IMG/VR virus record: IMGVR_UViG_3300025102_000020
Length of the DNA: 20,000 nt
Strand: one strand, 5' to 3'
Source: an uncultured virus (IMG/VR IMGVR_UViG_3300025102_000020)
Lineage: Duplodnaviria; Heunggongvirae; Uroviricota; Caudoviricetes; Crassvirales
Of this stretch, positions 4,059 through 19,504 are shown in pieces. The translations under genes were made by a program, and so were the position numbers. Position 1 is the first letter of the stretch; every line of letters begins with the position of its first letter. The notes beneath the pieces are model-generated. The model worked only from the letters and a program-made list of their open reading frames with translations, was not told where the DNA came from and ran no database searches.

Positions 4059-4204
4059 TATTTATTTAACGTTAAGCATACATCTACAAAGGGTAGATAT
4101 AAAACGTGGTTTGTTTTCTTTTTTTCGTCGTAAGATCTAAACCCTGTTAATATACCAGGGTAAAACCCAAAACTTAATTCCCATTTATCTTTTCTTTTTG
4201 CCAT
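4058..4204 (-). CDS. Small hypothetical protein (48 aa, not in ORF track)
   Basis: Manual translation gives MAKRKDKWELSFGFYPGILTGFRSY...LTLNK. It fills the gap, and its stop overlaps the nrdJ start (TAATG). Confidence 0.65.
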   Translation of the reverse strand: MAKRKDKWELSFGFYPGILTGFRSYDEKKKTNHVLYLPFVDVCLTLNK

Positions 4205-4652
4205 TTATTTTATTTTTATTTGTTATTAATTCTACTACTTGATCGCATTCCTTTTGGTTTTGAGGTTTATATAAAGTCACAGAAGGTAAGTTTGCTTTTA
4301 CATACTTTTTAAACATTTTCCAACGTAATGGGAAACTTTCATTAGCTCTTCCTTTGCATTCTATTATAAATGAATCGCTTACAAAATCAGGTGTGTATTT
4401 AATATTTAAGATCTTTTTTTGACCTCTATTAACCATATCACCTTTACCATTACCTTGTCGCTCATAAGAGTCTACATCGAACATAAACCCTTCTTGTAGT
4501 TCAAACGTTGCTCCTTCGTATACAGCATGTATTTTAGCTTTCTTTAAAGCTATGTACATATATTTTTCTAAACCGGATGCGAATTGGATCCCGTCAAAAG
4601 TAACCTTTTTACTCCTGACAGGACCTTTCTTTCTTTTATATTTCTTTTTCAC
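4185..4652 (-). CDS. PD-(D/E)XK endonuclease, T7 endonuclease I / Holliday junction resolvase-like
   Basis: FASGLE...YTPDF...IIECKG motifs. Confidence 0.8.
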   Translation of the reverse strand: MKKKYKRKKGPVRSKKVTFDGIQFASGLEKYMYIALKKAKIHAVYEGATFELQEGFMFDVDSYERQGNGKGDMVNRGQKKILNIKYTPDFVSDSFIIECKGRANESFPLRWKMFKKYVKANLPSVTLYKPQNQKECDQVVELITNKNKINGKKKR

Positions 4653-4908
4653 GATCTTCTAACTCTTCACGCGCGGCCTGTATGTATAGCACAGCATCCA
4701 TTAATTCCTCTTGTATATCCATAAGATATCCAGATAGGTTTTTAAACTTACCTCTACGTTCGTCGTCTAACGTTCTACCGTATTTCTCATAACCAACATC
4801 TGATCTTGATACAAACTTAGTAACTACGTGTTTAACAACTGGGTCTCTAAAACCAAACTCTTTACGTTCTATGCCGTTTTTGGCATCCATAATTTCTCTA
4901 CTTGACAT
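4636..4908 (-). CDS. Small all-alpha NTP pyrophosphatase-like protein
   Basis: The likely start is ATG 4908 (MSSRE). RSDVGYEKYG...QEELMDAVLY carries an EExxD acidic helix motif. Confidence 0.55.
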   Translation of the reverse strand: MSSREIMDAKNGIERKEFGFRDPVVKHVVTKFVSRSDVGYEKYGRTLDDERRGKFKNLSGYLMDIQEELMDAVLYIQAAREELEDREKEI

Positions 4909-4909
4909 A

Positions 4910-5809
4910 TTAATCCTTTTTAAATGTTCCGTTAACCATTTTACCAGTTCTATTTTTAATCTCGTAATAGGCTTGCTCGACGCACTGTTCGATTGGCTCA
5001 CCTATTAATTCAGCTAAGTTAGTCAATACGACAACACAATCACCAATACCATCAATAGCTTCCATATCGTTGCCTTTTAATATAGCTCTACAGGTTTCGC
5101 CGACCTCTTCAACAAGTTTTAACGCCTGTGTTTTAGGATCGCCTTTGTCATATAAACCTCTTTCGTCGGCCCACATTCTTATTAGTTCAAACATGCTAAC
5201 TTCCGAGCATTTGTCGTCACAGTATTTTTGTTGTCTAATACCTGTGGGCGCTAGACTACCGGTTCTACACCTACCATTATATTGGTCGTTCATTTGTTTA
5301 GCGTTGTCTAAGTCGTGTATAGCATAAGCGTCGTGGTTATCAAACCATCTAGCAAAAGCTTTATTGTACACATAACATCTGTCTTGAGTGTATTGAGATA
5401 CTTTAACGTTATCCATTATCCAATCAATTGATTTTGAAGTAATCCCAACTGGACCACTATCGGTTTCCCATTGCATACCTATTTTATCCATAAGTTGCCC
5501 TTTTAGTTTACTGACTGGACAAGGGAATGTCGTAGTCATTTCTGTTACATTTATTCTCATATTATTTATTGTTATTTGGTTTACTGGTTTATATAAATCT
5601 TTGTAAAGTTTTCTGTCAACTCTATAACCCAAGGCTTTCTGGAGTGATATTTCTCTCTCTGATACTAAATCAATATCTGAGGTAGACATTATAACTTGAT
5701 ACTCACCTTCGTAATAACCCTGTTGACGTTCAACCCTTTCTTTAAGATCTGTTGTTACCCCTATTTTTTTACCCGGGATATGGTATAAGTAATACATTTT
5801 ATCTGTCAT
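4910..5809 (-). CDS. Fusion of an N-terminal GIY-YIG-like domain, an unknown middle domain and a C-terminal MazG-like NTP pyrophosphohydrolase
   Basis: N-terminus YYLYHIPGKKIGVTTDLKERV...E; C-terminus WADERGL...QALKLVEEVGE...DGIGDCVVVL...AYYEIKNR. Confidence 0.75.
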   Translation of the reverse strand: MTDKMYYLYHIPGKKIGVTTDLKERVERQQGYYEGEYQVIMSTSDIDLVSEREISLQKALGYRVDRKLYKDLYKPVNQITINNMRINVTEMTTTFPCPVSKLKGQLMDKIGMQWETDSGPVGITSKSIDWIMDNVKVSQYTQDRCYVYNKAFARWFDNHDAYAIHDLDNAKQMNDQYNGRCRTGSLAPTGIRQQKYCDDKCSEVSMFELIRMWADERGLYDKGDPKTQALKLVEEVGETCRAILKGNDMEAIDGIGDCVVVLTNLAELIGEPIEQCVEQAYYEIKNRTGKMVNGTFKKD

Positions 5810-6459
5810 ATTTTATCGTTATATAGATGCATATTATGTGCGAAATGATAATATACACCCGGTTCAATATTAAGTCTGTTAGAGATCATCTTTTGCAGCT
5901 TAGAGAAACAATATTGATCGTTACAAAACCCGAACCACAAATCGTTACTCCTCATTGTTACGCACATATCTAGTCTACCATGTAATATGGTAAATTGAAT
6001 AGCGTAAGTACAAGGTGTGTCTCTCTCGTATTTAGGGTGTTCTTTACAATCGTATATAGATATTGCAGCTTGCCTAGTGTCTTTGTTATTTTTAAGTTTA
6101 TCAATAACATGATCTAATTGGCTAATATTATTCCAACAAGTTCTTTGCCACTGGTGACCATAGTTAGAATTAACATAACCGTGGTCGTTGGCCATACGTT
6201 TCCATATCTCAGGTACCTTACCGTATATATCGCCTAGCTTTTCGATATTGTCATCGCCAGATAAATACCATTGCCATTCAGCTTCAGCATAATCTTCTTT
6301 CCAGTTACGTTCTCTATTTGTTATTCTATTATCCATAGGATCTGTCATATAGAAACCTACGTTAAATAGAGCTTTAGTATCTCCGAAATCTACACCGTCT
6401 CGTATTATACGATCGTGTAAGTATTCATAAGCTGTATTTGCATTTCTAAACTTACGCAT
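5806..6459 (-). CDS. Thymidylate synthase-fold enzyme, probably dCMP hydroxymethylase/methylase type
   Basis: TRQA, DTPC (catalytic Cys), MRSNDLWFGFCND and HFAHNMHLY. It has Asp where ThyA has the dUMP-specifying Asn. Confidence 0.8.
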   Translation of the reverse strand: MRKFRNANTAYEYLHDRIIRDGVDFGDTKALFNVGFYMTDPMDNRITNRERNWKEDYAEAEWQWYLSGDDNIEKLGDIYGKVPEIWKRMANDHGYVNSNYGHQWQRTCWNNISQLDHVIDKLKNNKDTRQAAISIYDCKEHPKYERDTPCTYAIQFTILHGRLDMCVTMRSNDLWFGFCNDQYCFSKLQKMISNRLNIEPGVYYHFAHNMHLYNDKI

Positions 6460-6619
6460 AGTGTTCTCCTTTGTATTTAATATAACTAGATAAATCTCTT
6501 ATAGTGAAATCATCAACACCCGGTATAACTTTATAATACACGGTTTTAAATTCTTTATTTGTTCCCGGGTAGTATGTCAACTGTATTGTATTGTTATTTA
6601 TTTGTTTTATTGTATTTGT
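6452..6619 (-). CDS. Hypothetical small protein
   Basis: Fills the gap between the 94-aa ORF and the TS-like gene; start uncertain (6619 or 6643). Confidence 0.5.
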   Translation of the reverse strand, partial: TNTIKQINNNTIQLTYYPGTNKEFKTVYYKVIPGVDDFTIRDLSSYIKYKGEHYA

Positions 6620-6878
6620 CATAATAGTATTTATAGTATTCATACATTTTAGCTAAAGCTTCTTTGTCTTTGTAAACTTTAGGGTCTAAATGTATTTTCT
6701 TGTTAATATTTAATTCAACTTTCCATTCGCCTTTGCTATTTCCCCAGTCAGGTACTACAGCTATTTTAATTCCTTTCTTATTACACCAACAAACATGCTT
6801 CATATCTTGTTGAGTATATTTTAAAAATCCAGGACTTTGACCTACAACCTTCTTGGCGTTTCTAAATCCTATTCCCAT
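6594..6878 (-). CDS. Hypothetical protein
   Basis: 94-aa ORF overlapping the primase-helicase stop, on the operon strand. Confidence 0.65.
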   Translation of the reverse strand: MGIGFRNAKKVVGQSPGFLKYTQQDMKHVCWCNKKGIKIAVVPDWGNSKGEWKVELNINKKIHLDPKVYKDKEALAKMYEYYKYYYDKYNKTNK

Positions 6879-8581
6879 GGCATAGGCTCGTTCTCAGCCG
6901 CTACCATAACTTCAGGCATAAAGCTTCCAGATCGTGGTTCCCAGGTAAAGAAAGCCTCAGCTCCATTTTCTCCGAGGTTTTGAAACTTAACTTTAAGTAC
7001 TTTAACTTTAGTCGTTTTAGCTTCATAATCTCTATGGACTAACAAACCGTGGTAACTAGCATCGTACCATTCACCACCACCCTTAATGTTGTACATAGTA
7101 GGTTCTTCGATTTTACCATCTTGGCCCTTGTACATTTTAGTGGGGTGAGCAACTATAAAAGTTAACACATCGTACTTTCTACAGAAGGCTTCAATCTTGG
7201 CTAAGTAATCCATTGTATAACGGTTTACATCGTCTGAATGAGCGTTAACATCTCTAACTTTGTTAAATGGATCTATCACTAGACATTTGATACCCTTTCG
7301 TTTTACTAGCTCAGCTCCTTTGCGTAATACGGACTCTAAATTATACTTATCCATATCAATGAAGAAATAGTTATCGTTTACGTGGTCTGCAACTTGATTC
7401 CATTTGTCACCGCCAATATCTCCGGCCGATGGCATATCCATCCATGTTTTCCTCATTAATTTATGTGCGTGTAAGTATGTAGGTTGATTCTCTGGAGAAG
7501 CAAAAGCTGTCTTCCATTCATAATTCTTATTATAACCTACAACCATCTGATCAACAAAATCAGACTTACCACTACTAGGGATTCCAGTAACAGTAATAAA
7601 CTGACCGGTATACGTTGAGAATATTTTATCAAAGTTCTCAAGCCCAACTTGGAAACCAGGTTTGAAGCCGTTTTGTACAAAGTCCTTAAGTTCATCTTCT
7701 ATATCTTTTAAAGTTGTTACATTCTCTAATGGTACCTGTTTAGCCGCGTGTATAGCACTTTTCAGCTTGTCCGCTCCGTGTTCAATTAAGAAATCGTTAG
7801 CATCTTTGTTACCATTAAAATCTACTAAGTAGCATACCTCAGCACCAAGTCTTCTTACAAATTCATTCTTAAGAGCTTGACCAGGTTCATCAGCGTCTAC
7901 CGCTATTACAATCTTAGTTTTATCTTCTAAGTAATCAATACAATTATCTAAATAATCTAAGTTATTAGAATTCAATGTAGCTCCGTTGGGAACTGATATT
8001 GCATTCTGAATACCAGCTTCATGTAAAGCTAGTACGTCCATTTCTCCCTCTACGATAACGCACCAATCATACCCTACAATACTATTAATATTGTAAAATA
8101 CTTTTTCAGCGCCTTTGAAGAGTTTGAAGTTCTTTCTACCATCTCGATATTTAATATTAATAAGTTGGTCACCCATTAAATAATTAAACTGAATGGTATT
8201 TTCATTCTTACTCGTTTGAGGCATCCACTCAGGACCTTCAGTTACATAAAGATCTTTAAGTGTTTTCTTAGAGATACCTCTTGTACCGAACCAAGTTTCA
8301 ACATTAGTACTTACATCGTTAAATTGCTCTGGTGTCTGAGGTCTAACATAGACCTTTTCACTAGCGCCCTTACGTTGGTAAGTATGTAGTTGAAAACTTG
8401 TATCACAATTGTGACAGGTACCGAGACCACGTTCCCAATCATAAGAAGCACATTGTGCTTTCTGATTCTTAGGTTTCCTATCAGATGAACACAGGGGACA
8501 AATCCCCTGTGATGCACCTTCTTTTAGGCTATGTTGATTGAACTCGTCAATCAAAAATCCATTGATCTCTTCTCTATTCAT
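6869..8581 (-). CDS. DNA primase-helicase (T7 gp4/Twinkle-like)
   Basis: Zn finger CPLC...CHNC, TOPRIM EGEMD and DADEPG, Walker A GIPSSGKS, VIDP, VAHP. Confidence 0.95.
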   Translation of the reverse strand: MNREEINGFLIDEFNQHSLKEGASQGICPLCSSDRKPKNQKAQCASYDWERGLGTCHNCDTSFQLHTYQRKGASEKVYVRPQTPEQFNDVSTNVETWFGTRGISKKTLKDLYVTEGPEWMPQTSKNENTIQFNYLMGDQLINIKYRDGRKNFKLFKGAEKVFYNINSIVGYDWCVIVEGEMDVLALHEAGIQNAISVPNGATLNSNNLDYLDNCIDYLEDKTKIVIAVDADEPGQALKNEFVRRLGAEVCYLVDFNGNKDANDFLIEHGADKLKSAIHAAKQVPLENVTTLKDIEDELKDFVQNGFKPGFQVGLENFDKIFSTYTGQFITVTGIPSSGKSDFVDQMVVGYNKNYEWKTAFASPENQPTYLHAHKLMRKTWMDMPSAGDIGGDKWNQVADHVNDNYFFIDMDKYNLESVLRKGAELVKRKGIKCLVIDPFNKVRDVNAHSDDVNRYTMDYLAKIEAFCRKYDVLTFIVAHPTKMYKGQDGKIEEPTMYNIKGGGEWYDASYHGLLVHRDYEAKTTKVKVLKVKFQNLGENGAEAFFTWEPRSGSFMPEVMVAAENEPMPWE

Positions 8582-8890
8582 TTAGAATGGTAAGTCAGCT
8601 TCTGGTTGAGGAGTTGGAGCTGGGGCTGCTGGAGCGCCATCTCTAGGAATAACATCTACGTTGTCTCCATTGGTCCACACTACCTTTACATTACCTAAAT
8701 AAGTCTTAGCTGCTTTAGCATCTCTTTCTTCTTTAGTTTGCTCTACAACTACTGGTCCTTGATTACCGAATTGATCAGCCTCATCATTGATAGTAATTGT
8801 GATTGGTAAATACTTACCTTTCTTACCCACGAAGATTTTATCTTTAGGGATTTTGTTTAAGTCTATACTTGCTTTAATTATACTTGCCAT
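8582..8890 (-). CDS. Single-stranded DNA-binding protein (putative)
   Basis: OB-fold-like beta pattern, Pro/Ala linker and acidic-aromatic tail EADLPF; adjacent to the helicase. Confidence 0.75.
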   Translation of the reverse strand: MASIIKASIDLNKIPKDKIFVGKKGKYLPITITINDEADQFGNQGPVVVEQTKEERDAKAAKTYLGNVKVVWTNGDNVDVIPRDGAPAAPAPTPQPEADLPF

Positions 8891-8892
8891 AT

Positions 8893-9084
8893 TTAACTAT
8901 TTATTAATGTTACTAAATTTCTAACTTGATCAACACTAGCTCCGGTTGTTCTTCTAAAGTTATCGAAGCTCTTATGGTATGGATGTAATCCATCATTAGA
9001 ATTTTCGTTAACATAGAAGTTATCGTTGTTAGCTTTGAATTTCTTGCCTGAAATACTACAGGTCTTCATTTTTGGTCTTCCCAT
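8893..9084 (-). CDS. Hypothetical small protein
   Basis: Likely start ATG 9084 (MGRPKMKTC); fills the operon gap. Confidence 0.6.
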   Translation of the reverse strand: MGRPKMKTCSISGKKFKANNDNFYVNENSNDGLHPYHKSFDNFRRTTGASVDQVRNLVTLINS

Positions 9085-9088
9085 TGGT

Positions 9089-9844
9089 TTATAAGGTTTT
9101 GTTAATAAAATATTGAGCCGGATCGAAGTCATCTGTCTTATAAAATAAGTCATATACTTCTATTGCTTTAATCACCTTGTCTTTCCCCGACTCGTAGAAT
9201 TTAGGTGAACAATCAAACATTCCTATTTGATGCGTCTTTTTGTCTATTGCTATAAATAGCATTTCATAACCGAATAACTGTTGGTATATATAAGCTTGGC
9301 TATCGTAATTAAACTTCTTAGCACTCCATTGAAACCTATCTATATCTCCAGTTGTTTTAAGGTCGATAACTAACTTTTCATCGTGATTGATAATATCAGC
9401 CTTACCTTTCCACATAACACCTTCGATTTCTTTAATCATTGGTTGTTCATACTCAACTGTTCCTTCGTGTCTTTCAAATACGTCAGAACCTAGTATAAGG
9501 TCTCTACATATATCATTAGCCATTATTTTTTCTGTCATAAGGTTTATATTATCTGCCTCTGACTGAAGCAAACACATCTCACCACCAGATATCTCTTTAT
9601 ACTGCTTAGTATTTCTACTAGTAGACTCAACGATCTTAAAACTTGCTAGTTTCTCAGGTTCTAATATTGCTGTATGAAAATATCCACCCATTAAAAAATT
9701 AGGGTTTGGCTTAGATGGTTTACCTAGTTGTAACGGGTTGTTTAGTAAGGTACTAATATCTGAGTTAGATAAGTACTGCTTACCAAACGTTCCGTAATAA
9801 TGTTCATCTATTTTAAGCTTTTGTAATATCTGCTTTTTGTCCAT
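9089..9844 (-). CDS. RecE/ExoVIII-like PD-(D/E)XK exonuclease (DUF3799-like)
   Basis: LSNS, GGYFHTAILEP, KGKADI, IDLKTT and YDSQAYIY; next to an ERF gene. Confidence 0.85.
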   Translation of the reverse strand: MDKKQILQKLKIDEHYYGTFGKQYLSNSDISTLLNNPLQLGKPSKPNPNFLMGGYFHTAILEPEKLASFKIVESTSRNTKQYKEISGGEMCLLQSEADNINLMTEKIMANDICRDLILGSDVFERHEGTVEYEQPMIKEIEGVMWKGKADIINHDEKLVIDLKTTGDIDRFQWSAKKFNYDSQAYIYQQLFGYEMLFIAIDKKTHQIGMFDCSPKFYESGKDKVIKAIEVYDLFYKTDDFDPAQYFINKTL

Positions 9845-10382
9845 TTAATTCTTTTTTATCTGCTGCGGTTAGTTTATATTTAGATTCTATAGCTTCAATT
9901 TTACCACCTGCCGCTATGTATTCTTTAGCTTTTGTTAGTTGAGCTGTTGTTATAGTTGGTTTAGCTTTAGCTTTAATCTTATCTACAACTCCGTGTTTGT
10001 TGCCTGCATCAGCATCTTCAGTGTCATCAATTAAGAATAAATTACCAAGAGCATATTTCTTACCGTATGTAGAGGCTGCTCCGAACTGCTGAGCGGTTTG
10101 CATACCTTTCTGGTTAAGATCTACACCTACAAGAGCTGTTGCGTGTATAGCGTCTGTACCGTTAGATATAGTAGCCGTTGACAATAGTGTTGGCACTGGA
10201 TCTGTTGCTACCATCTCTTCGCTTACGGTCACGTAAACTTTATGTTCTAATAAAAAAGGTTTTATCGCTTCTAATATATCTTCTGATTTTCTAAAGTAGT
10301 ATTTCCCAAAGGAATTATAACTACTTTTCTTAGCTTTCATCTTTGTTTGTATTGTGGCTAAGGATTTTGTTAGTTCTTTCAT
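9813..10382 (-). CDS. ERF-family single-strand annealing protein
   Basis: YNSFGKYYFRKSEDIL and QQFGAASTYGKKYALGNLFLIDDTEDAD, the ERF GxxxxYxxKY motif. Confidence 0.9.
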   Translation of the reverse strand: MKELTKSLATIQTKMKAKKSSYNSFGKYYFRKSEDILEAIKPFLLEHKVYVTVSEEMVATDPVPTLLSTATISNGTDAIHATALVGVDLNQKGMQTAQQFGAASTYGKKYALGNLFLIDDTEDADAGNKHGVVDKIKAKAKPTITTAQLTKAKEYIAAGGKIEAIESKYKLTAADKKELNGQKADITKA

Positions 10383-10453
10383 ATTATTATATTTTAGTCT
10401 ATATTATAATTACACATTAGTGTCTTACTTTTAATTTTATTTATCACTCTATC

Positions 10454-11209
10454 TTACACAAAGTCAAGCACTTGCGAGTGATCTACGTTCTCAATTAGCT
10501 TGTCTACAGCTTGTCTTTTTAGCTGTGAAATTCTAACGTAAGAACTACTACCTTCGATGCCTAAATATTCTGCGATTTGTGTAGCGGAATGTTTATCACA
10601 ATCAAGTCCGTAACTTAATCTTAGTACTTGATACTCTCTATCTGACAAGTGAGCTTGACACAAGCCTTTTAAATAGAGGTTTAGTAAATCTATATTATAT
10701 GGTTCAGATGTATCAGGTATTTGATATACCATATCTTCATCATTAGGGTTGGCGTCAATACTTAAGAATACTGAGTTGAAAAACATTTCAACCATCTTTT
10801 TATCTTTGCCAAAGTTTTTACGTATTTCGTTTATCTTATGCTCAGGTAATCTTATACTTCCTCTATTAGAGTCTATTTGTCTACGAATACTACCTTTGAT
10901 TCTTTTTGAAAAGAAAGATTTTAATGTCTTTTCCATATCTTCAGATTCTCCAAGTTTTTCATAATCTAGCTTTTTGACCGCCTGTACTAATCCTAAACTA
11001 CCAGATTGTATCATATCCATAATTGTCATCACTCCACTAGCTTGTTGGGATGTAGCGAACTTTCTAGCTATATTTTCTACTAATGGCAAAAACTTAATTG
11101 TAAGTTCTTCCCTAGTGTATTCATCCCACATTTTACCTTCTAATCTAGCTACAGCTTGCTTGACATCGTTCTTGTATCTTACATAATTCTGTATGTTATA
11201 TTTCTTCAT
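10454..11209 (-). CDS. Phage-encoded sigma-70 family factor
   Basis: Region 2 LPLVENIARKF...DMIQSGSLGLVQAVKK, then IRLPEH, and region 4 LSDREYQVLRLSYGL...IAEYLGI...RISQL. Confidence 0.92.
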   Translation of the reverse strand: MKKYNIQNYVRYKNDVKQAVARLEGKMWDEYTREELTIKFLPLVENIARKFATSQQASGVMTIMDMIQSGSLGLVQAVKKLDYEKLGESEDMEKTLKSFFSKRIKGSIRRQIDSNRGSIRLPEHKINEIRKNFGKDKKMVEMFFNSVFLSIDANPNDEDMVYQIPDTSEPYNIDLLNLYLKGLCQAHLSDREYQVLRLSYGLDCDKHSATQIAEYLGIEGSSSYVRISQLKRQAVDKLIENVDHSQVLDFV

Positions 11210-11565
11210 TTGTTTAATTTTTCGTTAATTCTTTCTTGTACTATCAATCTATCTATAAGTGTTGGTTTATAATCATTCATTAATTCTTCTGGAACATCAT
11301 TCCATGCACCTATATAATTCTGTACGTTAAACCCTCGTTTAATACATTCAACATATAGTTGAGAATATCTGAACTTAAGGTATAACAGCTTGTTATAGAA
11401 GAACTTAACATGACCGGCGCCTAGTTTAAATTTATCAGGTATACCATCCATGTTGTACTTACCTTTAGCAACACAATTTGGTATTCGCTTAATTTCTCTA
11501 TGTTCCGCCAGTAAATGTTGATTAGTTAATTCAGCTGGTTCTATTCCTACGTTTATTCTAGTCAT
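11206..11565 (-). CDS. denV: Pyrimidine dimer DNA glycosylase (T4 endonuclease V-like)
   Basis: MTRIN...LTNQHLLAEHREIKRI...GHVKFFYNKL...RGF closely follows DenV motifs. Confidence 0.93.
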   Translation of the reverse strand: MTRINVGIEPAELTNQHLLAEHREIKRIPNCVAKGKYNMDGIPDKFKLGAGHVKFFYNKLLYLKFRYSQLYVECIKRGFNVQNYIGAWNDVPEELMNDYKPTLIDRLIVQERINEKLNK

Positions 11566-12182
11566 AATTGTTGGTTTAATAATTTAATTTCTCTTCTTAA
11601 TGTTACATCTAAGTTTCTATGTATTGTTCTTGTTGAGCAGAAACATACCTCTGCTAATCTCCTGATTGTAATATCCACATCATTATCATGAATACTTAAC
11701 ATAGCATCGTAAACATCGTCTGGCGTTACTTTTTTAGTTCTACCTATTAACTCTCCTACAATACGTAGTTTTTCTTCAACGCATAAACCTGAGTTCATTT
11801 TGAATATAACTTTACGTGATTTGTTTTTAGGTGGTTCATCAAGGTCTAACATACTAATTTCATACACCATCTTTCTTAACAAGTCTTCATGTATCGTAAA
11901 TGTAGTAAATCCTTGTTGTTTGTTAGCGATGACTTCTGCTATCTCTACCAATTGATCTTGGTCTAATTGAGGGTTAAGATACCATATAACTAATAAATGC
12001 CACTTAAGAGATTTATATGTAGTTATCTTAGCTTTACTATTGAATAGATGGTAACATTCATACGTTCCATTTTCAAAGAAAAGATAACACTCATTCTCTT
12101 GAGTGGGTTTATCAGTTATAGGATCTCTCCTATAAACGATACGTTTATTATCTAGGTATCTGGTATTTCGATTATGTGACAT
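11562..12182 (-). CDS. DNA-binding protein with C-terminal helix-turn-helix
   Basis: ITIRRLAEVCFCSTRTIHRNL is HTH-like. Confidence 0.6.
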   Translation of the reverse strand: MSHNRNTRYLDNKRIVYRRDPITDKPTQENECYLFFENGTYECYHLFNSKAKITTYKSLKWHLLVIWYLNPQLDQDQLVEIAEVIANKQQGFTTFTIHEDLLRKMVYEISMLDLDEPPKNKSRKVIFKMNSGLCVEEKLRIVGELIGRTKKVTPDDVYDAMLSIHDNDVDITIRRLAEVCFCSTRTIHRNLDVTLRREIKLLNQQL

Positions 12183-12189
12183 TAGCCTA

Positions 12190-12327
12190 TTACTCTATAT
12201 TCTTAAGGGCTGTTGTCACAGTCCCCTGGGGTTTTAAAGTACCGAATATAATCCTAGTTTCATTCTTATCGTTACCATATTTAATATCATTAAATTGTTT
12301 TATTCTTAATCTTAATTTTTCATCCAT
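12190..12327 (-). CDS. Small hypothetical protein (45 aa, not in ORF track)
   Basis: Manual translation gives MDEKLRLRIKQFNDIKYG...KNIE; fills the gap. Confidence 0.5.
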   Translation of the reverse strand: MDEKLRLRIKQFNDIKYGNDKNETRIIFGTLKPQGTVTTALKNIE

Positions 12328-12330
12328 ATT

Positions 12331-12495
12331 CTAAAATTTTAATAGCTTTAAATATCTGTTATACTTCTTAAATAACTCTACCTTTATAGGGCTAAGTTGG
12401 CTGTGTATAGCATTTTGAAATATCTCTTGTCTTAACTTATATACGTGGTGCTCAACTGTATTCATATGTAATCTTTTTCTAAATATCTTATTCAT
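12331..12495 (-). CDS. Small hypothetical protein
   Basis: The likely start is MNKIFRK, overlapping the ligase end. Confidence 0.55.
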   Translation of the reverse strand: MNKIFRKRLHMNTVEHHVYKLRQEIFQNAIHSQLSPIKVELFKKYNRYLKLLKF

Positions 12496-13351
12496 AATTG
12501 CGTATACATTTAAATAAAGGGTGACGATAGCTATTAGCTTTAGTTCTTTCAAAGAAAGTAAACGTAGCTCGTTGACCTATGTAATCATGTATATTATCAA
12601 GCATATCTTTCATATCTTTGTAATTATAACCTTTACCAGGTGGACAACCAAACTCTATACCATCATCATCTCTCATAAGAAACTTACCAAGAGTACCCGT
12701 ACGCTTACCTTTACCATCAACATAACCGATAATAGTAGCTTCGGCATCGGAAAAGTCTTTAAACTTACGTAACGACCATGATCTACCGCACTTGTATATA
12801 TCGTTAGTACGTAATATAGAGCCTTCGTAACCAGCACCTAAATTTTCTTGGTGGTATAATTTAGCTCTTTCTTCAGAATCAACGCTAAATGCTGGTAAAA
12901 ATCTAACACAATAGGAATCTCTTAAATTACTTATTAAAAATAAGGCTCTATCATGATAAGTCATGTGTTCCATTATTGTATCGTAACAATGAAATTGTAC
13001 GTTATCAACTGATTTAAGTCTATCCTCAGTTGTTGGTTTTGTTTTTCTGACCATAGATATAATAGACTCGAAATCGTCTTTAAAATCGTGATTATATAAC
13101 TCACCATCTAACACAACATTAGGATGTTTTGCAAAGAAAGGTTTTAACTCTTCTAATATATGGTCTATATTTTTCCATTCTTTACCTGTGCGTGAGTATG
13201 CTTTTACTTTGAAAGGCGTTTTTACATCTGTAAATTCAGCTTGTATTAAACACCTAACACCATCTAATTTTGGTTGTATAAATGTTGGTTTATTGTAGTC
13301 TATTGGTTTGTCGCTAACAGGATATGCTAACATTGGTTTTTTTCTCATCAT
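12488..13351 (-). CDS. lig: ATP-dependent DNA ligase
   Basis: Motif I QPKLDGVR, LDGELY, YEGSILR, KFKDFSDAE and a terminal RHPLF. Confidence 0.93.
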   Translation of the reverse strand: MMRKKPMLAYPVSDKPIDYNKPTFIQPKLDGVRCLIQAEFTDVKTPFKVKAYSRTGKEWKNIDHILEELKPFFAKHPNVVLDGELYNHDFKDDFESIISMVRKTKPTTEDRLKSVDNVQFHCYDTIMEHMTYHDRALFLISNLRDSYCVRFLPAFSVDSEERAKLYHQENLGAGYEGSILRTNDIYKCGRSWSLRKFKDFSDAEATIIGYVDGKGKRTGTLGKFLMRDDDGIEFGCPPGKGYNYKDMKDMLDNIHDYIGQRATFTFFERTKANSYRHPLFKCIRNYE

Positions 13352-13644
13352 AATTTATCTATTTTATCATTTATTATATCTATTTCTTTTTTAATCTCAG
13401 CACATTCTTCATATTCTTCTTTTTCTTGATGATAGTTTAACTGAGTCATCAATTTAGCTAATTGACCTAATAATTCAGACTCTGTGTCTGCTTTTTTAGT
13501 CTTTTTTCTAGGTTTTTGTTTGAATGTGTTGTATATATCATCCATACTAGACGTAGTATACCACGTCGCCTGCTCTCTTATATAAGTTGTTAACAGTTTA
13601 TCAACAATTATATCTGCTAATTTGTTCATTTCTTTATCTGTCAT
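13348..13644 (-). CDS. Hypothetical protein with UVR-like C-terminal coiled coil
   Basis: EKEEYEECAEIKKEI resembles the UvrB/UvrC motif. Confidence 0.55.
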   Translation of the reverse strand: MTDKEMNKLADIIVDKLLTTYIREQATWYTTSSMDDIYNTFKQKPRKKTKKADTESELLGQLAKLMTQLNYHQEKEEYEECAEIKKEIDIINDKIDKL

Positions 13645-13981
13645 ATTTGTCTATTAATTTTTGTGGTTCTCCCACGAATATACATTTTTCTTTTTCATCA
13701 TTAAAAGTATTTGTTTTAAATATACTTATCCAAGTACTTTTGTCGTAATCTGACCATATATAATATATATAATCTAGATCACTGTGAATATCTTGCACGT
13801 GTTCTATTTCCCAACCACTTAATTTATGGTAATAAGCAAGTGATTGTGCAAGTTCTACACCTAATCCTTCTGGATATCCATCACTATGCACATAAAACTG
13901 TGCGTGTATTTTATCTGGGTGTTCACTAAACGATACTCCATCTTCTCGTGTAGCGAATCTAACTTGCGCTCTAGTCGACAT
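13634..13981 (-). CDS. Conserved phage hypothetical protein (YxHxDGYP motif)
   Basis: The likely start is MSTRA; FYVHSDGYPEGLG and DYIYYI. Confidence 0.65.
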   Translation of the reverse strand: MSTRAQVRFATREDGVSFSEHPDKIHAQFYVHSDGYPEGLGVELAQSLAYYHKLSGWEIEHVQDIHSDLDYIYYIWSDYDKSTWISIFKTNTFNDEKEKCIFVGEPQKLIDKYDR

Positions 13982-14237
13982 AAAATTGTATTTCTTCATA
14001 ATAAGCATTTTGCATACCTTCTATTAAATCTCTACCACTATGAGTATGAAACCCATAACTATGAGTATGTAACGCACTTATTGGTTTGTCTTCTAATAAC
14101 AACTGCATTAAAGCAAACGAATCATAGTCTACTTTGTGTGAAACATAGTTTATAGCTTCCGCTAAAGCCTCACAATTATGTCTTGGTTCACTCTCAAGAT
14201 CTTCTCTTATATATTTTTCTATTTGTTCTCCTGTCAT
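13971..14237 (-). CDS. Hypothetical protein
   Basis: 88-aa ORF with an ATGA overlap to the upstream gene. Confidence 0.65.
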   Translation of the reverse strand: MTGEQIEKYIREDLESEPRHNCEALAEAINYVSHKVDYDSFALMQLLLEDKPISALHTHSYGFHTHSGRDLIEGMQNAYYEEIQFYVD

Positions 14238-14683
14238 TTCTTTATGTTTTTATAGATATACTCTAATGTTGATGGCCAATCGAGACATCTTTGGTTGTGT
14301 CCAAACCATATCCATTTACCTTGGAAATCAGGTTGTCCTCTCCATCTACTATCATCGATCAATACATCACCTATTAGTAAGTCTTTTCTATGTGTTAGTA
14401 TTAATTTTCTTTTAAGGTATGGAAAGTGTTGTTCAATCCATCTTCTCTTCGCCGCCCACATATCAGGTCTAGACCAAGGTGGTGTTGACGCTATAAATAT
14501 ATCAAAGTCTTCATTTAACTTGATAAGAGCGTCTTTTGCACCTGGTATTGCTTGTAATTTACCATAATCTACGTGGAGGTCGGGTCTGTGTATAGCACAA
14601 CCACGTTCCTCTTCTAGGATTTTATGTTCTCTACTGAAATCAGAGATCACTCCATCCATATCTATATACATTACTTTCTTCAT
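14234..14683 (-). CDS. 5'(3')-deoxyribonucleotidase (HAD, NT5C family)
   Basis: IDMDGVISDF, K..W...HFP and KDLLIGDVLIDD. Confidence 0.9.
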   Translation of the reverse strand: MKKVMYIDMDGVISDFSREHKILEEERGCAIHRPDLHVDYGKLQAIPGAKDALIKLNEDFDIFIASTPPWSRPDMWAAKRRWIEQHFPYLKRKLILTHRKDLLIGDVLIDDSRWRGQPDFQGKWIWFGHNQRCLDWPSTLEYIYKNIKK

Positions 14684-14685
14684 AT

Positions 14686-14946
14686 CTAATCTAATAATAC
14701 CATATACGCTTTCGCATTATTTACTTTGAACCAATCTAATCCTCTAGATAGAGTATTAATAATATCTTTATTATTTACACCCATCTCAGAAACTATACAA
14801 GCTCCCATAACTAGATCGTACATAGATAGTTCTATATTATTTAGTTCATATTCTTCTCCTGTGAACCTGTTTGCTACAGTTCCACCTTCTTCATAAACAG
14901 TTCCATCGAACCATTTAGGTAGTGTTTGTTCTTTTGTTTTACTCAT
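14686..14946 (-). CDS. Hypothetical protein
   Basis: The likely start is MSKTKEQ at 14946. Confidence 0.65.
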   Translation of the reverse strand: MSKTKEQTLPKWFDGTVYEEGGTVANRFTGEEYELNNIELSMYDLVMGACIVSEMGVNNKDIINTLSRGLDWFKVNNAKAYMVLLD

Positions 14947-14948
14947 AA

Positions 14949-15053
14949 TTATTTTTCTGCTGTTAATATTTCGACACACTCTGCCCACGTCATTTCTTCT
15001 ATTTGTTCTTCAGTATAGATACCGAGTTCTTTTACCATTTCCCAAGGACTCAT
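14949..15053 (-). CDS. Small acidic protein (34 aa, not in ORF track)
   Basis: Manual translation gives MSPWEMVKELGIYTEEQIEEMTWAECVEILTAEK; 1-2 nt spacing to neighbours. Confidence 0.55.
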   Translation of the reverse strand: MSPWEMVKELGIYTEEQIEEMTWAECVEILTAEK

Positions 15054-15054
15054 A

Positions 15055-15276
15055 TTATTTATTTCTATATTGATTACTATTTCTTAATGCTTTTTGAGTT
15101 GTAAGATTATCTATCTTATCTTGTACTACTTTAATCATTTGTAACCAGTATTCTCTAGTTATGATAGGTCTTTGGCCCATTAGTTTCGCCTCGTCTTGGC
15201 TCTTGTGCATTTCTGCTACAAAGTTATCGACCATCTCGTCTAATATAACTCTGTCTTGAATGTCAAATTTTTTCAT
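15055..15276 (-). CDS. Hypothetical protein
   Basis: 73-aa ORF with an A-rich leader. Confidence 0.65.
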   Translation of the reverse strand: MKKFDIQDRVILDEMVDNFVAEMHKSQDEAKLMGQRPIITREYWLQMIKVVQDKIDNLTTQKALRNSNQYRNK

Positions 15277-15297
15277 TTATTTAATTTTATTTGTTAG

Positions 15298-15509
15298 TGC
15301 CCAAGGGTGGATTCGAACCACCTATTTTCCTAGTACTACTACCGAGTTTCGGTTATTGAGGTCCACTAAAACGCTTTATCCCTCTACCGAGTTTCGGTTT
15401 GTAGCGACAAGGCTCTATTTTTGTTCAGTACTTACCGAGTCTCATCTCAACAACTCGCCAGCGTACTTCCCACATTACCATAGATTTACTGTTCACCTTG
15501 TACTTGGGC
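15298..15509 (-). ncRNA. tRNA-like structured RNA (acceptor stem + T-arm) with ~180-nt insert
   Basis: 5' GCCCAAG pairs perfectly with 3' CTTGGGC-A; T-arm GGTGG-TTCGAAT-CCACC; GC-richer than flanks; occupies an intergenic gap. Confidence 0.75.
15339..15440 (-). repeat. Hairpin direct repeats AACCGAAACTCGGTAG (2 exact + 1 partial)
   Basis: Identical 16-mers at 15339-15354 and 15384-15399, and a partial ACTCGGTA at 15433-15440. Confidence 0.85.
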
Positions 15510-15524
15510 TGTTATTAAAACACT

Positions 15525-15878
15525 CTATTGAGCGGAATTTTCTTCTGTATCATCTATTATCTTAAACTTATTTTCTATTAAACGTATGATAGGTTCTCTT
15601 ACATAATCACAACTATTAAATTCTATACTATTAGTAGTAATTCTATTATCATAATCTATATCGTATTCAAAGTCATAATTTTCTGTATCATTGAAGTCAA
15701 ACTCTTCTATACCTTCGGTAACACAGTCGTATATAATGTCCAGTGTAGACTGATTTAACTTTGGTTTATTAACATTGTTTAACTCTATAGTTTTAACATT
15801 TAACTCTGTTTGTAACAACTCTAATTTGTCTTGTAAGCCTTTTACTGTAGCTTCTAACAGTTCTTTTGATTCACTCAT
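15525..15878 (-). CDS. Hypothetical acidic protein with N-terminal coiled coil
   Basis: 117-aa ORF. Confidence 0.7.
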   Translation of the reverse strand: MSESKELLEATVKGLQDKLELLQTELNVKTIELNNVNKPKLNQSTLDIIYDCVTEGIEEFDFNDTENYDFEYDIDYDNRITTNSIEFNSCDYVREPIIRLIENKFKIIDDTEENSAQ

Positions 15879-16117
15879 ATTATTATTATTTTATATTTTC
15901 CTGATTTGTATTCTTCTCTAGTTTCAAGATACTCCATTGGAAACTCTTGATGAGTTTTGAATGAAGTATATCCACCTGGCCCATCACTTAGTATTTCTAT
16001 CGTACCATATCCTGGCCAGTGAGGATTATTATCTATATCTAGTATTATTTCTTTTCTTTCTTTAACGTTAGATCTATCTAAGTTAAACCATAATTGTTTT
16101 AGTTCTTGTCTATTCAT
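15875..16117 (-). CDS. Hypothetical protein
   Basis: The likely start is MNRQELK at 16117; ATGA overlap downstream. Confidence 0.6.
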   Translation of the reverse strand: MNRQELKQLWFNLDRSNVKERKEIILDIDNNPHWPGYGTIEILSDGPGGYTSFKTHQEFPMEYLETREEYKSGKYKIIII

Positions 16118-16271
16118 ACCATATTCCTCTCGCTGTTGTTTCACCAACTATATTACCACTACTATTTCTCATAAGAGCTTTTCCTTTAACGCTCTTGACA
16201 ATACACTGTCCCTTTAATAGGCTTTTGTCTTGGTACTTAGGGTTCTTACTGTTTAGTTTTCTTTTTTTCAT
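16110..16271 (-). CDS. Small basic protein (53 aa, not in ORF track)
   Basis: Manual translation gives MKKRKLNSKNPKYQDKS...ARGIWYE. Confidence 0.5.
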   Translation of the reverse strand: MKKRKLNSKNPKYQDKSLLKGQCIVKSVKGKALMRNSSGNIVGETTARGIWYE

Positions 16272-16398
16272 CTAAATTCTTTATTAAATTTTTTCTATTT
16301 ATATTACTTCTTATATGACACTTTATTTGTGACGATATATACATTCCCATAGCTATTCCTACGCCGAATATAGTTATTATTCCTATTGTTTCTTCCAT
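16246..16398 (-). CDS. Small single-pass membrane protein (50 aa, not in ORF track)
   Basis: MEETIGIITIFGVGIAMGMYISSQIK...: a hydrophobic N-terminal helix followed by a basic tail. Confidence 0.55.
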   Translation of the reverse strand: MEETIGIITIFGVGIAMGMYISSQIKCHIRSNINRKNLIKNLDEKKKTKQ

Positions 16399-16399
16399 G

Positions 16400-17068
16400 T
16401 TATTTTACTTTATATCTATGTCCATCTATTATTATATCTACTGAATTTGGTTTATCTTCTTTCCATTTATTCCAATAAGCGTGTTGCTCGTGAACAAATA
16501 CATCACCATTTTCTAAATTAGTTATTTGACCACCTGAATATTCAAAGTTAATCATGTCGTCAGTATCTTTACATTTAAGAAAATCACCAAGTTCGTATTC
16601 GTATTTAGTTACTTTCTCCATTGTTTCTAAATCATGTTCATACTTCCATTTAGATATATATTTACCGTCTTCAACTTGATTCGCTTGTTTAATATAATAG
16701 TTTTTGAGACAATAGAGTACTAAGTATCTTAATCTAGCTACTTCACCTCGTATAATTATACGTCTTTTACCTTCAAATTTATTGTATTTACCTGTCCAAT
16801 ACTGTTCGTCACGTGTATCACACCACTTGTAGTCTTTGAAATACTCTACACTTGGTTCACACTTATTTAGTTGATAAGGTGTATAACCACCGTTCATTCT
16901 TCTTACATAACCTGACTGAAACGAACCTACCTCTATATACTTACCATACATTTTGATAGGTAATCTATATATTATAGTACCGTTTTTCTGTTGTTTTTTA
17001 GTTGAAATATCTTTCCAACCTAGTAAATCGATAGTATCGATCACTTGTTTTTCACTTTCTAATTTCAT
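16400..17068 (-). CDS. Hypothetical protein
   Basis: 222-aa ORF, no motif recognised. Confidence 0.75.
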   Translation of the reverse strand: MKLESEKQVIDTIDLLGWKDISTKKQQKNGTIIYRLPIKMYGKYIEVGSFQSGYVRRMNGGYTPYQLNKCEPSVEYFKDYKWCDTRDEQYWTGKYNKFEGKRRIIIRGEVARLRYLVLYCLKNYYIKQANQVEDGKYISKWKYEHDLETMEKVTKYEYELGDFLKCKDTDDMINFEYSGGQITNLENGDVFVHEQHAYWNKWKEDKPNSVDIIIDGHRYKVK

Positions 17069-17069
17069 A

Positions 17070-17309
17070 TTATTTATTTTCTATTAAAAATCTATCACCA
17101 TATAGATCTTGCCATACTAACTCTGTTACATCATTATCTGTCCAGATAAACACCTGTTGTAGTTGTTCTACTGTTAATTGACCGAAGAAATAGTTTTCTT
17201 CTAACGATTTTTTAGTTACTTGTGGGCCAACAGTATATTTACCTTCATCAATATAGTGATTTATTGTTCGTTTATACTCTGGTTTGAGTCTATTCCATAA
17301 GTTTTCCAT
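17070..17309 (-). CDS. Hypothetical protein
   Basis: 79-aa ORF with 1-nt spacing to neighbours. Confidence 0.7.
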   Translation of the reverse strand: MENLWNRLKPEYKRTINHYIDEGKYTVGPQVTKKSLEENYFFGQLTVEQLQQVFIWTDNDVTELVWQDLYGDRFLIENK

Positions 17310-17310
17310 A

Positions 17311-17637
17311 TTACTTATTATTTTTACGTTCAGAAGCTCTTTTTATTGCTTCTTCAAGTGTTACACCTTTACTATTAGTATAACTACTCATAGCGTCGTT
17401 AAGAGTGTCTTGACTATCTTGATCTAACTCTGTGCCATCTTCAAGTTTCCATTCACCATCACAGTCATCACAACCACAATTATTTTCGTCAACACTAATC
17501 AACTCGGTCATATAATCACCACTTTCTATTAGTTCTTGTTGGTAAATTATAATCGCTTCTTTCTCACTGAGAGCTTCAACTTCAACTCCACATCTCATTC
17601 CTGTACAATCTCTGTACTCAATTTCATACTTCTTCAT
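17311..17637 (-). CDS. Hypothetical acidic protein
   Basis: 108-aa ORF directly downstream of a promoter-like repeat. Confidence 0.7.
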   Translation of the reverse strand: MKKYEIEYRDCTGMRCGVEVEALSEKEAIIIYQQELIESGDYMTELISVDENNCGCDDCDGEWKLEDGTELDQDSQDTLNDAMSSYTNSKGVTLEEAIKRASERKNNK

Positions 17638-19131: not shown

Positions 19132-19161
19132 AATTTCTATATTTTATTTGTTATACATTAG

Positions 19162-19203
19162 TTGTAGTGTGAGAATCGAACTCACTTATTTACCATAACT
19201 ACA
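19162..19203 (-). ncRNA. Minimal tRNA-like element (acceptor stem + T-arm, no anticodon arm)
   Basis: TGTAGT-TATGGTAAATAA-GTGAG-TTCGATT-CTCAC-ACTACA-A. Confidence 0.7.
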
Positions 19204-19273
19204 TAGTTTCTGAAACTCTGTCCATTCACATTATTTATACTCGTTAAATGTGTCCAACTACGAGTGAAAAGAA

Positions 19274-19504
19274 TTATACTAATTCCTTTCCTCTACACAC
19301 CATCGGTATGTTATTGGTCGCGGTGTAACTCTTATATTTTTCCCAACACGGTAGAGACTCTAATGTCGACTTCATAATCTCGTACACTTTGTCGTGATTG
19401 TAAGTTATTTCGTCACCTTTTTTCGTCGTGAAAGTGATCATTTGGTTTTTTCCGATTAAAGACTTTCTTACGACAAATCTTTTACTTTTTAATACATTTT
19501 CCAT
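19274..19504 (-). CDS. Hypothetical protein
   Basis: 76-aa ORF downstream of a promoter-like repeat. Confidence 0.7.
   Translation of the reverse strand: MENVLKSKRFVVRKSLIGKNQMITFTTKKGDEITYNHDKVYEIMKSTLESLPCWEKYKSYTATNNIPMVCRGKELV

Follow-up and report, generated by a model that had tools for sequence, protein, structure and literature searches.

Does a 212-nucleotide (nt) stretch of phage DNA that carries the top half of a transfer RNA (tRNA), with neither a D arm nor an anticodon arm, encode an RNA in its own right, and if so, of what kind? The stretch lies at positions 15298-15509 on the minus strand of a 20,000-nt sequence from an uncultured virus assigned to Crassvirales (IMG/VR record IMGVR_UViG_3300025102_000020; this whole stretch of DNA is called the window below), where it fills the gap between two minus-strand open reading frames (ORFs). 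The stop codon of ORF 15525-15878 is separated from the RNA start by 15 nt, and the RNA end from the ATG of ORF 15055-15276 by 21 nt. We conclude that window 15298-15509 is almost certainly a real structured RNA gene and that, judging from sequence comparison, it belongs to an apparently undescribed conserved family of phage non-coding RNAs built on the acceptor/T-arm frame of tRNA.

A tRNA-like element between two genes

A first-pass annotation of the window had pointed to this element and proposed that it is an undescribed phage non-coding RNA. The parts it listed are present: on the minus strand GCCCAAG (15509-15503) pairs with CTTGGGC (15305-15299) as a perfect acceptor stem of 7 base pairs (bp), the T-arm GGTGG TTCGAAT CCACC lies at 15322-15306, and the discriminator A at 15298 is followed by CTA, CCA not being encoded. 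An 18-codon ORF (MVMWEVRWRVVEMRLGKY) does begin at 15481. The T-loop pattern GGTTCRANTCC occurs once in the 20-kb window, against 0.03 occurrences expected, and the minimum free energy fold of the element (-67 kcal/mol, z = -3.67) has the acceptor and T-arm closed and two long interior arms. Only about 45 nt of the 180-nt interior are conserved among relatives, most of the remainder being lineage-specific fill of two variable arms (P3 and P4, see below).

Relatives and distribution of the family

An exact scan of IMG/VR with the T-arm and the acceptor 3' strand returned two contigs, the interiors of which share long blocks with the window. The shared 16-mer TATGGTAATGTGGGAA led to 35 loci, 14 of which have it within an acceptor/T-arm frame, with four different acceptor stems, and a metagenome scan using the 16-mer together with CAAAAATA led to 88 loci. 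A complete element could be parsed in 89 of the 101 loci examined, and in the remaining 12 the match lies near the end of the locus. The parsed loci hold 79 distinct full-length sequences of 121-276 nt, from viral and metagenome contigs. Alignments by MAFFT were unreliable at the 5' end of the GCGGGUG lineage, and the covariance model R2 was therefore made from 20 members outside it, with the four helices written by hand; all sequences were then aligned by R2. The model recovers 79 of 79 members at 58-149 bits and scores the window element at 112.9 bits (E 4e-28), at exactly 15298-15509. The claim of an undescribed phage RNA is thus upheld by 79 distinct relatives with strong covariation and by the lack of a match in Rfam, ARAGORN and literature searches, as detailed below.

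The family appears to be confined to phages. One genome each of 185,579 prokaryote species gave 12 pattern matches and no family member, and the locus and a minimal member, compared by blastn with 50,697 cultured-phage records, found nothing or no more than T-arm matches to tRNAs. Among the matches listed for the pattern AAAATARAG..GGTTCRANTCC there were ordinary tRNAs and no new member; the pattern GTGGGAA..AACAAAAATARAG returned 31 loci, only four of them members, all already known, and the others mostly coding region. Carrier phage genomes range from about 60 kb to more than 200 kb. Model R1 scores one copy each in four of five near-complete or complete carrier genomes; the insert-rich copy of the fifth is missed by R1 and is known from the 16-mer scan. 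The primase-helicase of the window is 41.6% identical to its counterpart in Cellulophaga phage phi10:1, further matches being to Flavobacterium and Tenacibaculum phages. Parts of the window neighbourhood occur in 24 sequencing runs, which carry the label marine metagenome. The family belongs to phages of marine Bacteroidota and is widespread there.

Fold, covariation and conserved core

The element forms a closed four-way junction of the acceptor stem, a P2 rod, the arm P4 and the T-arm. The earlier description was right that the D and anticodon arms are missing, and needs correction in that their place is taken by a four-way junction rather than by one large insert. Read 5' to 3', the family layout consists of the acceptor (7 bp), 1 nt, P2 (6-7 bp), a bulge (L1), P2b (5 bp), the junction strand GGUAAUGUGGGAA, P3, a second junction strand WNAACAAAA, the 3' strands of P2b and P2, 0-2 nt, P4, a linker, the T-arm, the acceptor 3' strand, the discriminator and a C. 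In tRNA terms P2 occupies the place of the D stem and P4 that of the anticodon stem. In place of the D arm stands a 12-bp rod, at the end of which lies a junction with the two near-invariant strands UAUGGUAAUGUGGGAA and AACAAAA.

The helices are supported by compensatory changes among the relatives, the collection and covariation of which had been named as the check on the original proposal. Across the 81 rows aligned by the model, pairing is kept in 98.5% of cells, and both sides have changed in 18 of the 24 pairs (acceptor 7/7, P2 6/7, P2b 2/5, T-stem 3/5). Doubly changed cells number 167, against 24.4 in shuffles, and none of 500 shuffles matches any of the measures; sliding the partner columns by 1-3 positions lowers pairing to 23-49%. 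An independent segment parse shows the same compensations, with at least seven acceptor types and at least ten P2 types. The shortest members (121-130 nt) have P4 as a plain hairpin with a 3-4-nt loop.

The conserved core is the junction at the end of the rod. The 16-mer is identical in 79 of 79 distinct members, having itself been part of the search patterns, and part of the second junction strand (WNAACAAAA) was likewise within the metagenome search pattern. When the 5' 17 nt of the window lineage served as the sole anchor, the scan gave 88 loci, mostly coding sequence, with nine family contigs among them: seven carry the exact 16-mer, and two, which are identical to each other, have GUGAAAA in place of GUGGGAA. 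These two contigs are also altered in the opposite junction strand, with AAGCGAA in place of AACAAAA, a single case suggesting that the junction strands may change in concert. Every one of the 81 sequences seen has the 12-mer UAUGGUAAUGUG unaltered, in contrast to the freely varying helices on its flanks.

In the window, the segments are placed as follows, all on the minus strand. The acceptor 5' strand GCCCAAG (15503-15509) has compensatory changes in all seven pairs, with 99.6% of cells paired over the 81 aligned rows. It is followed at 15502, the place of tRNA position 8, by a single U, which the segment parse finds in most members, A standing there in the GCGGGUG group and G in loci L019 and L200. 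The P2 5' strand ACAAGGU (15495-15501) takes the place of the D stem, six of its seven pairs being changed on both sides and its terminal U-G pair being retained in 76 of 81 rows. The bulge L1 (GAACAGUAAA, 15485-15494), present on the 5' strand only, is 3-13 nt long in the family and begins with GA or AA. The P2b 5' strand UCUAU (15480-15484) has three invariant inner pairs and two covarying outer ones (C-G, U-A, U-G), and leads into the first junction strand (15467-15479), which with the preceding UAU makes up the near-invariant 16-mer at 15467-15482. P3 is a variable hairpin of 39 nt (15428-15466), ranging in the family over 12-73 nt and 20 closing 4-bp combinations. The second junction strand, UGAACAAAA in the window (15419-15427), occurs among the 79 members most often as AUAACAAAA (42) and UUAACAAAA (16), followed by the window variant (7) and AGAACAAAA (5).

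Parse and covariation place the contiguous 3' strands of P2b (AUAGA) and P2 (GCCUUGU) at 15407-15418. Among the internal pairings first suggested, ACAAGG/CCTTGT is real and conserved, as part of the 7-bp P2 (ACAAGGU/GCCUUGU), while CGAGT/ACTCG and GAGG/CCTC sit in variable arms and are not conserved in the family. The variable arm P4 (15335-15405, 71 nt) stands in the place of the anticodon arm, is closed by GCUAC/GUAGU and has no anticodon loop; in the family it measures 10-97 nt and shows 30 closing 5-bp combinations. Just 5' of the T stem lies the linker ACUAGGAAAAUA (15323-15334; family pattern GG-W-W-AAU-N), in alignments of which the AA is invariant and one G at least 90% conserved. The T-arm GGUGG UUCGAAU CCACC (15306-15322) has three of five pairs covarying, invariant inner G-C pairs and 99.8% of cells paired. 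The element closes at 15297-15305 with the acceptor 3' strand CUUGGGC (15299-15305), the discriminator A at 15298 and an encoded C74 at 15297; C75 and A76 are not encoded.

Comparison with known RNAs

The searches that had been recommended for recognising a known family gave no match to one. ARAGORN reports no tRNA or transfer-messenger RNA (tmRNA) gene in the window and none at the homologous elements. Rfam 15 gives nothing in the window at gathering scores, and nothing real at E values up to 10 on 15150-15650, including RF00005. Literature searches with motif strings of the family returned only an irrelevant primer match, and queries for phage tRNA-like stable RNAs returned nothing relevant. 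The family has the 7-bp acceptor, a T-arm with a GTTCRANYC loop, the discriminator and the 3' flank of a tRNA, but lacks the D arm and the 7-nt anticodon loop, and is not detected by tRNA models. The RNA cannot decode, no member having an anticodon loop.

The closest known kind is found in phages T4 and T5, the RNAs of which are analogues of the family rather than detectable relatives. T4 species 1 RNA (rnaC, 139 nt; AF158101 70908-71046, annotated "small, stable RNA") is phage-encoded, co-oriented with the tRNA genes beside it, and folds into a like four-way outline, with an acceptor-like closing stem, a long first arm, a short hairpin, a canonical GGGUUCGAAUCCC T-arm and no anticodon. However, its acceptor-like stem is mismatched, it is without the UAUGGUAAUGUGGGAA / AACAAAA junction, it scores 10.4 bits with R1, below true tRNAs, and R2 does not find it at E <= 0.001. 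We know of no function assigned to it in the decades since its description. T4 is moreover an enterobacterial phage, whereas the family is carried by phages of marine Bacteroidota. T5 RNA1 and RNA2 (AY543070 30501-30644 and 32959-33083, annotated "tRNA-like stable RNA with unknown functions") are tRNA-shaped RNAs of 125-144 nt, situated inside the phage tRNA region and combining an acceptor and T-arm with an oversized interior. They do not share the junction core; T5 RNA1 scores 19.7 bits with R1, which is the level of ordinary tRNAs, and R2 matches neither T5 RNA. A position on the same strand beside a tRNA gene, as in T4 and T5, is found for the family in 14 loci, but not in the window, which has no tRNA gene.

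The bacterial Y RNA YrlA (Chen et al. 2014, PMC4201824) is non-coding and has a tRNA-like domain, and in M. smegmatis YrlA is cleaved by RNase P and acquires CCA. The ends of YrlA form the Ro60-binding stem and its tRNA-like part is distal, whereas the ends of the family form the acceptor stem; the motif GNCGAAN0-1G is not seen in the window element. A TROVE/Ro60 gene was found in none of the five near-complete or complete carrier genomes. Identity with Y RNAs was rejected on the grounds of the acceptor stem at the ends, the lack of a TROVE gene and the lack of an Rfam match. Finally, tRNA-like processing signals of the plant mitochondrial t-element and mascRNA type are tRNA-like folds that lie at an mRNA boundary and are cleaved by RNase P/Z; the position of the window element between two ORFs fits, and its cleavage would be a prediction of that comparison.

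Genomic context and the tRNA-like 3' end

Of the 79 members, 73 have A as discriminator, four have U and two have G. The base after the discriminator is C in all 79, followed by A or U, and a full CCA is encoded in one member only. At the family loci ARAGORN finds 50 tRNAs in 18 of 88 loci, 36 of them distinct, and among these neighbouring true tRNAs C74 is likewise encoded in all 32 that could be parsed (four were not parsed), with the full CCA in eight. This unusual and uniform 3' rule of the loci with tRNA rows (L012, L035, L210, L264 and others), C74 mostly without C75-A76, may reflect how the hosts trim tRNA precursors. In 13 loci a tRNA-Asp or tRNA-Glu gene follows the element on the same strand after a 5-nt spacer, and in one the element comes 5 nt after tRNA-Ser; phage contigs of 150-207 kb have it between tRNA-His and tRNA-Glu, within rows of 13-14 tRNAs. 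The shared C74 and the 5-nt tRNA spacers make maturation by host tRNA enzymes the natural inference, and we regard the element as probably processed like a tRNA. Families of CCA-adding enzyme are absent from the five near-complete or complete carrier genomes, which would point to dependence on host enzymes.

Box sequences of the type TAnnTTTG, the promoter consensus of Bacteroides, are found 36-47 nt upstream of the element in 7 of 79 members, all from the GCGGGUG or GAGAGGU lineage, against an average of 2.65 in shuffles. This suggests that these members have their own promoter. No such box lies within 60 nt upstream of the window element.

In a relative's contig from an oligo-dT RNA library, 76 extra letters are inserted exactly at the 5' edge of the element (window 15510-15518). 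The insertion has the size and place of an extra tRNA or tRNA-like gene, as is found in L022 and L029.

Proposed mode of action and its rivals

From the family, its fold and covariation and its tRNA-like genomic grammar, we infer processing, stability, action in trans and a role for the junction as the active site. On balance we favour a stable trans-acting tRNA mimic that would be excised by tRNA-processing enzymes and would act through its invariant junction. In this phage the element would be transcribed within a long minus-strand message, cut by RNase P at G1, trimmed at the 3' end to A73-C74 and completed with CCA by host enzymes, like the phages' own tRNAs, yielding a stable RNA about 215 nt long. 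Processing, stability and the tRNA-like outline would all come from the acceptor/T-arm frame. The junction at the tip of the 12-bp rod (GGUAAUGUGGGAA plus AACAAAA) would be the functional site, most likely docking a conserved host or phage macromolecule in trans; we put the chance that the junction binds a partner in this way slightly above even. Aminoacylation by one dedicated synthetase is probably not to be expected, because the acceptor sequences differ between lineages.

Several points weigh against this interpretation. The alignment used for covariation is fitted to the model structure, which favours the fold; the invariance of the 16-mer is inflated by its use in the search patterns, and the sole independent anchor sampled the GCCCAAG lineage only. 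The contigs of four RNA or possibly-RNA runs on window 13500-17500 come from relatives, and none of them covers the element, 15376-15509 being bare in two of the runs. None of the 50,697 cultured-phage records carries the family. Lastly, the tight placement between two ORFs is also what would be expected of a signal that acts purely in cis.

Such a cutting signal ("tRNA punctuation"), in which the frame recruits RNase P and the 3' enzymes and splits the message between the flanking ORFs, the excised RNA having no role, is the main rival, although we consider it unlikely. The spacing of the window element, 15 nt past one stop codon and 21 nt before the next same-strand ATG, agrees with it, as does the lack of a TAnnTTTG-type box within the 60 nt upstream. 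For cutting, however, an acceptor and T-arm would suffice, yet the most conserved part of the family is the junction 12 bp away, and the constancy of UAUGGUAAUGUG while the flanking helices vary argues for a function beyond that of a cutting signal. In the 14 loci where the element lies within tRNA rows, cuts are already supplied by the neighbouring tRNAs, and the seven members with an upstream box seem to have promoters of their own. Improbable too, as a specific form of action in trans, is an anti-defence decoy or sponge, in which a CCA-ended mimic would soak up a host factor that attacks or senses tRNAs; acceptor-end-modifying toxins, tRNA nucleases and tRNA-sensing regulators would be examples. 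The complete acceptor/T-arm minihelix with its tRNA-like 3' grammar would suit a decoy, as would the restriction to phages (the 12 pattern matches across the prokaryote species all being non-members) and the single copy that each phage genome has, placed amid early, replication and tRNA genes. On the other hand, an acceptor-end decoy would need no invariant distal junction, and no association with defence or counter-defence genes was found, no test having been aimed at such an association. Anticodon nucleases are unlikely targets of a decoy, since P4, which stands in the place of the anticodon arm, is the least conserved part.

Two further readings follow from the likeness to tRNA genes themselves. 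A tmRNA-like rescue RNA, charged at its 3' end and using an internal ORF from a conserved AUG as tag template, would share with the family a tRNA-like acceptor/T-arm domain that closes a larger RNA, and an AUG-started short ORF does begin inside the invariant 16-mer in every member. That ORF, however, is 7-59 codons long and of unrelated sequence beyond MVMWE; pair 3:70 is C-G in the window and G-C, U-A or C-G in other lineages, and never the G-U of tmRNA; minimal members of 121-130 nt need no pseudoknots in their folds; and there is no ARAGORN tmRNA or Rfam match. We therefore rejected this reading, for want of G3:U70, a conserved tag frame and a detector match, as very improbable. The variant that the first-pass annotation had entertained, a tmRNA analogue specific for an amino acid other than alanine, fares no better, given that the ORF varies past five codons, the acceptors differ by lineage and no tmRNA detector responds. 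The acceptor, T-arm, discriminator and C74 are features of tRNA genes, which makes descent from a tRNA plausible, but that the element is an intron-containing or decayed tRNA gene, with intron or junk as its interior, can hardly be credited. No tRNA or group I intron match appears even at E values up to 10; the shortest members are too small for a D arm plus an anticodon arm, with P4 loops of 3-4 nt; and the interior core, which is conserved best of all and has covarying helices, does not behave like junk. This reading was rejected as well, with no intron core found in Rfam and whole members of as little as 121 nt.

Plug-in hairpin and neighbouring small RNAs

At the tip of P4 in the window is a 27-nt hairpin, GAGGGAUAAAGCGUUUUAGUGGACCUC (15358-15384, minus strand), flanked by two exact copies of ACCGAAACUCGG (15342-15353 and 15387-15398, minus strand), against 0.02 expected. 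The ACCGAAACUCGG unit is near-palindromic, its two copies pair with each other in the predicted fold, and it occurs twice upstream of the element in L002/L029. The hairpin (GRGGGAUARAGCG..UUAGUGGACCUC) is plugged into different places in different members, namely the P4 tip in the window, P3 of L021 and bulge L1 of L224, and it is also found at the apex of a different, long-stem RNA with a U-tail (L288 299-325). This hairpin may represent a mobile mini-insert or else a shared module for protein binding, and its occurrence in both the family and the long-stem RNA hints at a shared partner. Ideas formed by eye, that this hairpin contains a k-turn and that the junction imitates the 16S 530 loop or a T-loop, were dropped.

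At least six of the 89 loci have the long-stem RNA (CGAG.GUGGCGCGUGAGA.GUGUA ... UCUUACUCACUUGGCCACCUCG UUUU) as a same-strand neighbour of the family element (L003 1673-1800 region, minus strand; L011, L021, L029, L252, L277; L288 270-355). The long-stem RNA was not found in the window, and an Rfam search of it by E value gave only noise; its outline resembles that of Y RNAs. A second anticodon-less tRNA-like family (..CUAGGUAUGG...ACUACUGACGAGUAUGAGGUUCGAUUCCUCACUAG..) is present in 18 of 89 loci (L029 1383-1468 and L288 365-432, both on the plus strand, and 16 further loci). Its end is about 10 nt upstream of the main element, or else it is situated 350-460 nt downstream. These neighbouring long-stem and tRNA-like RNAs indicate that the phages carry small-RNA islands. 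In relatives, this family, the second tRNA-like family and the Y-RNA-like long-stem RNA, which can have the same plug-in hairpin, might together make up a phage-encoded set of small RNAs that captures or disarms a host machine for RNA surveillance or tRNA sensing; the invariant junction, the UGGU of which is complementary to an ACCA 3' end, would then be the contact site. We consider this reading improbable.

Other features of the window

A weak tRNA-like candidate lies at window 19161-19263 on the minus strand, just past the stop codon of ORF 19274-19504. Its T-arm (GUGAG UUCGAUU CUCAC) follows AUGGUAAAUAA, and six of seven acceptor positions pair (UCGUAGU/ACUACAA); the candidate scores 15.7 bits with R2 (E 0.016), and folds no better than shuffles (z 0.10). 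Window 2193-13351 is a module of phage replication and nucleotide metabolism, with genes for a B12-type ribonucleotide reductase, DUF1064, a MazG-like protein, thymidylate synthase, the primase-helicase, a PDDEXK nuclease, an ERF recombinase, a sigma-70-like factor (10454-11209), a pyrimidine-dimer glycosylase, an ATP-dependent DNA ligase and an NT5C nucleotidase.

Significance of the family

Stable tRNA-shaped RNAs of phages have been known since the era of T4 and T5, and to our knowledge no function has been assigned to them. The family described here offers an unusually clean handle on such phage tRNA mimics, with a minimal version of 121 nt, a fold supported by covariation, and a single short, near-invariant junction that can be mutated without touching the processing frame. 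Adding the family to RNA catalogues would stop these loci from being read as empty intergenic DNA. If a partner of the junction is found, it could reveal what tRNA mimics are for, whether counter-defence, control of host tRNA metabolism or RNA quality control.

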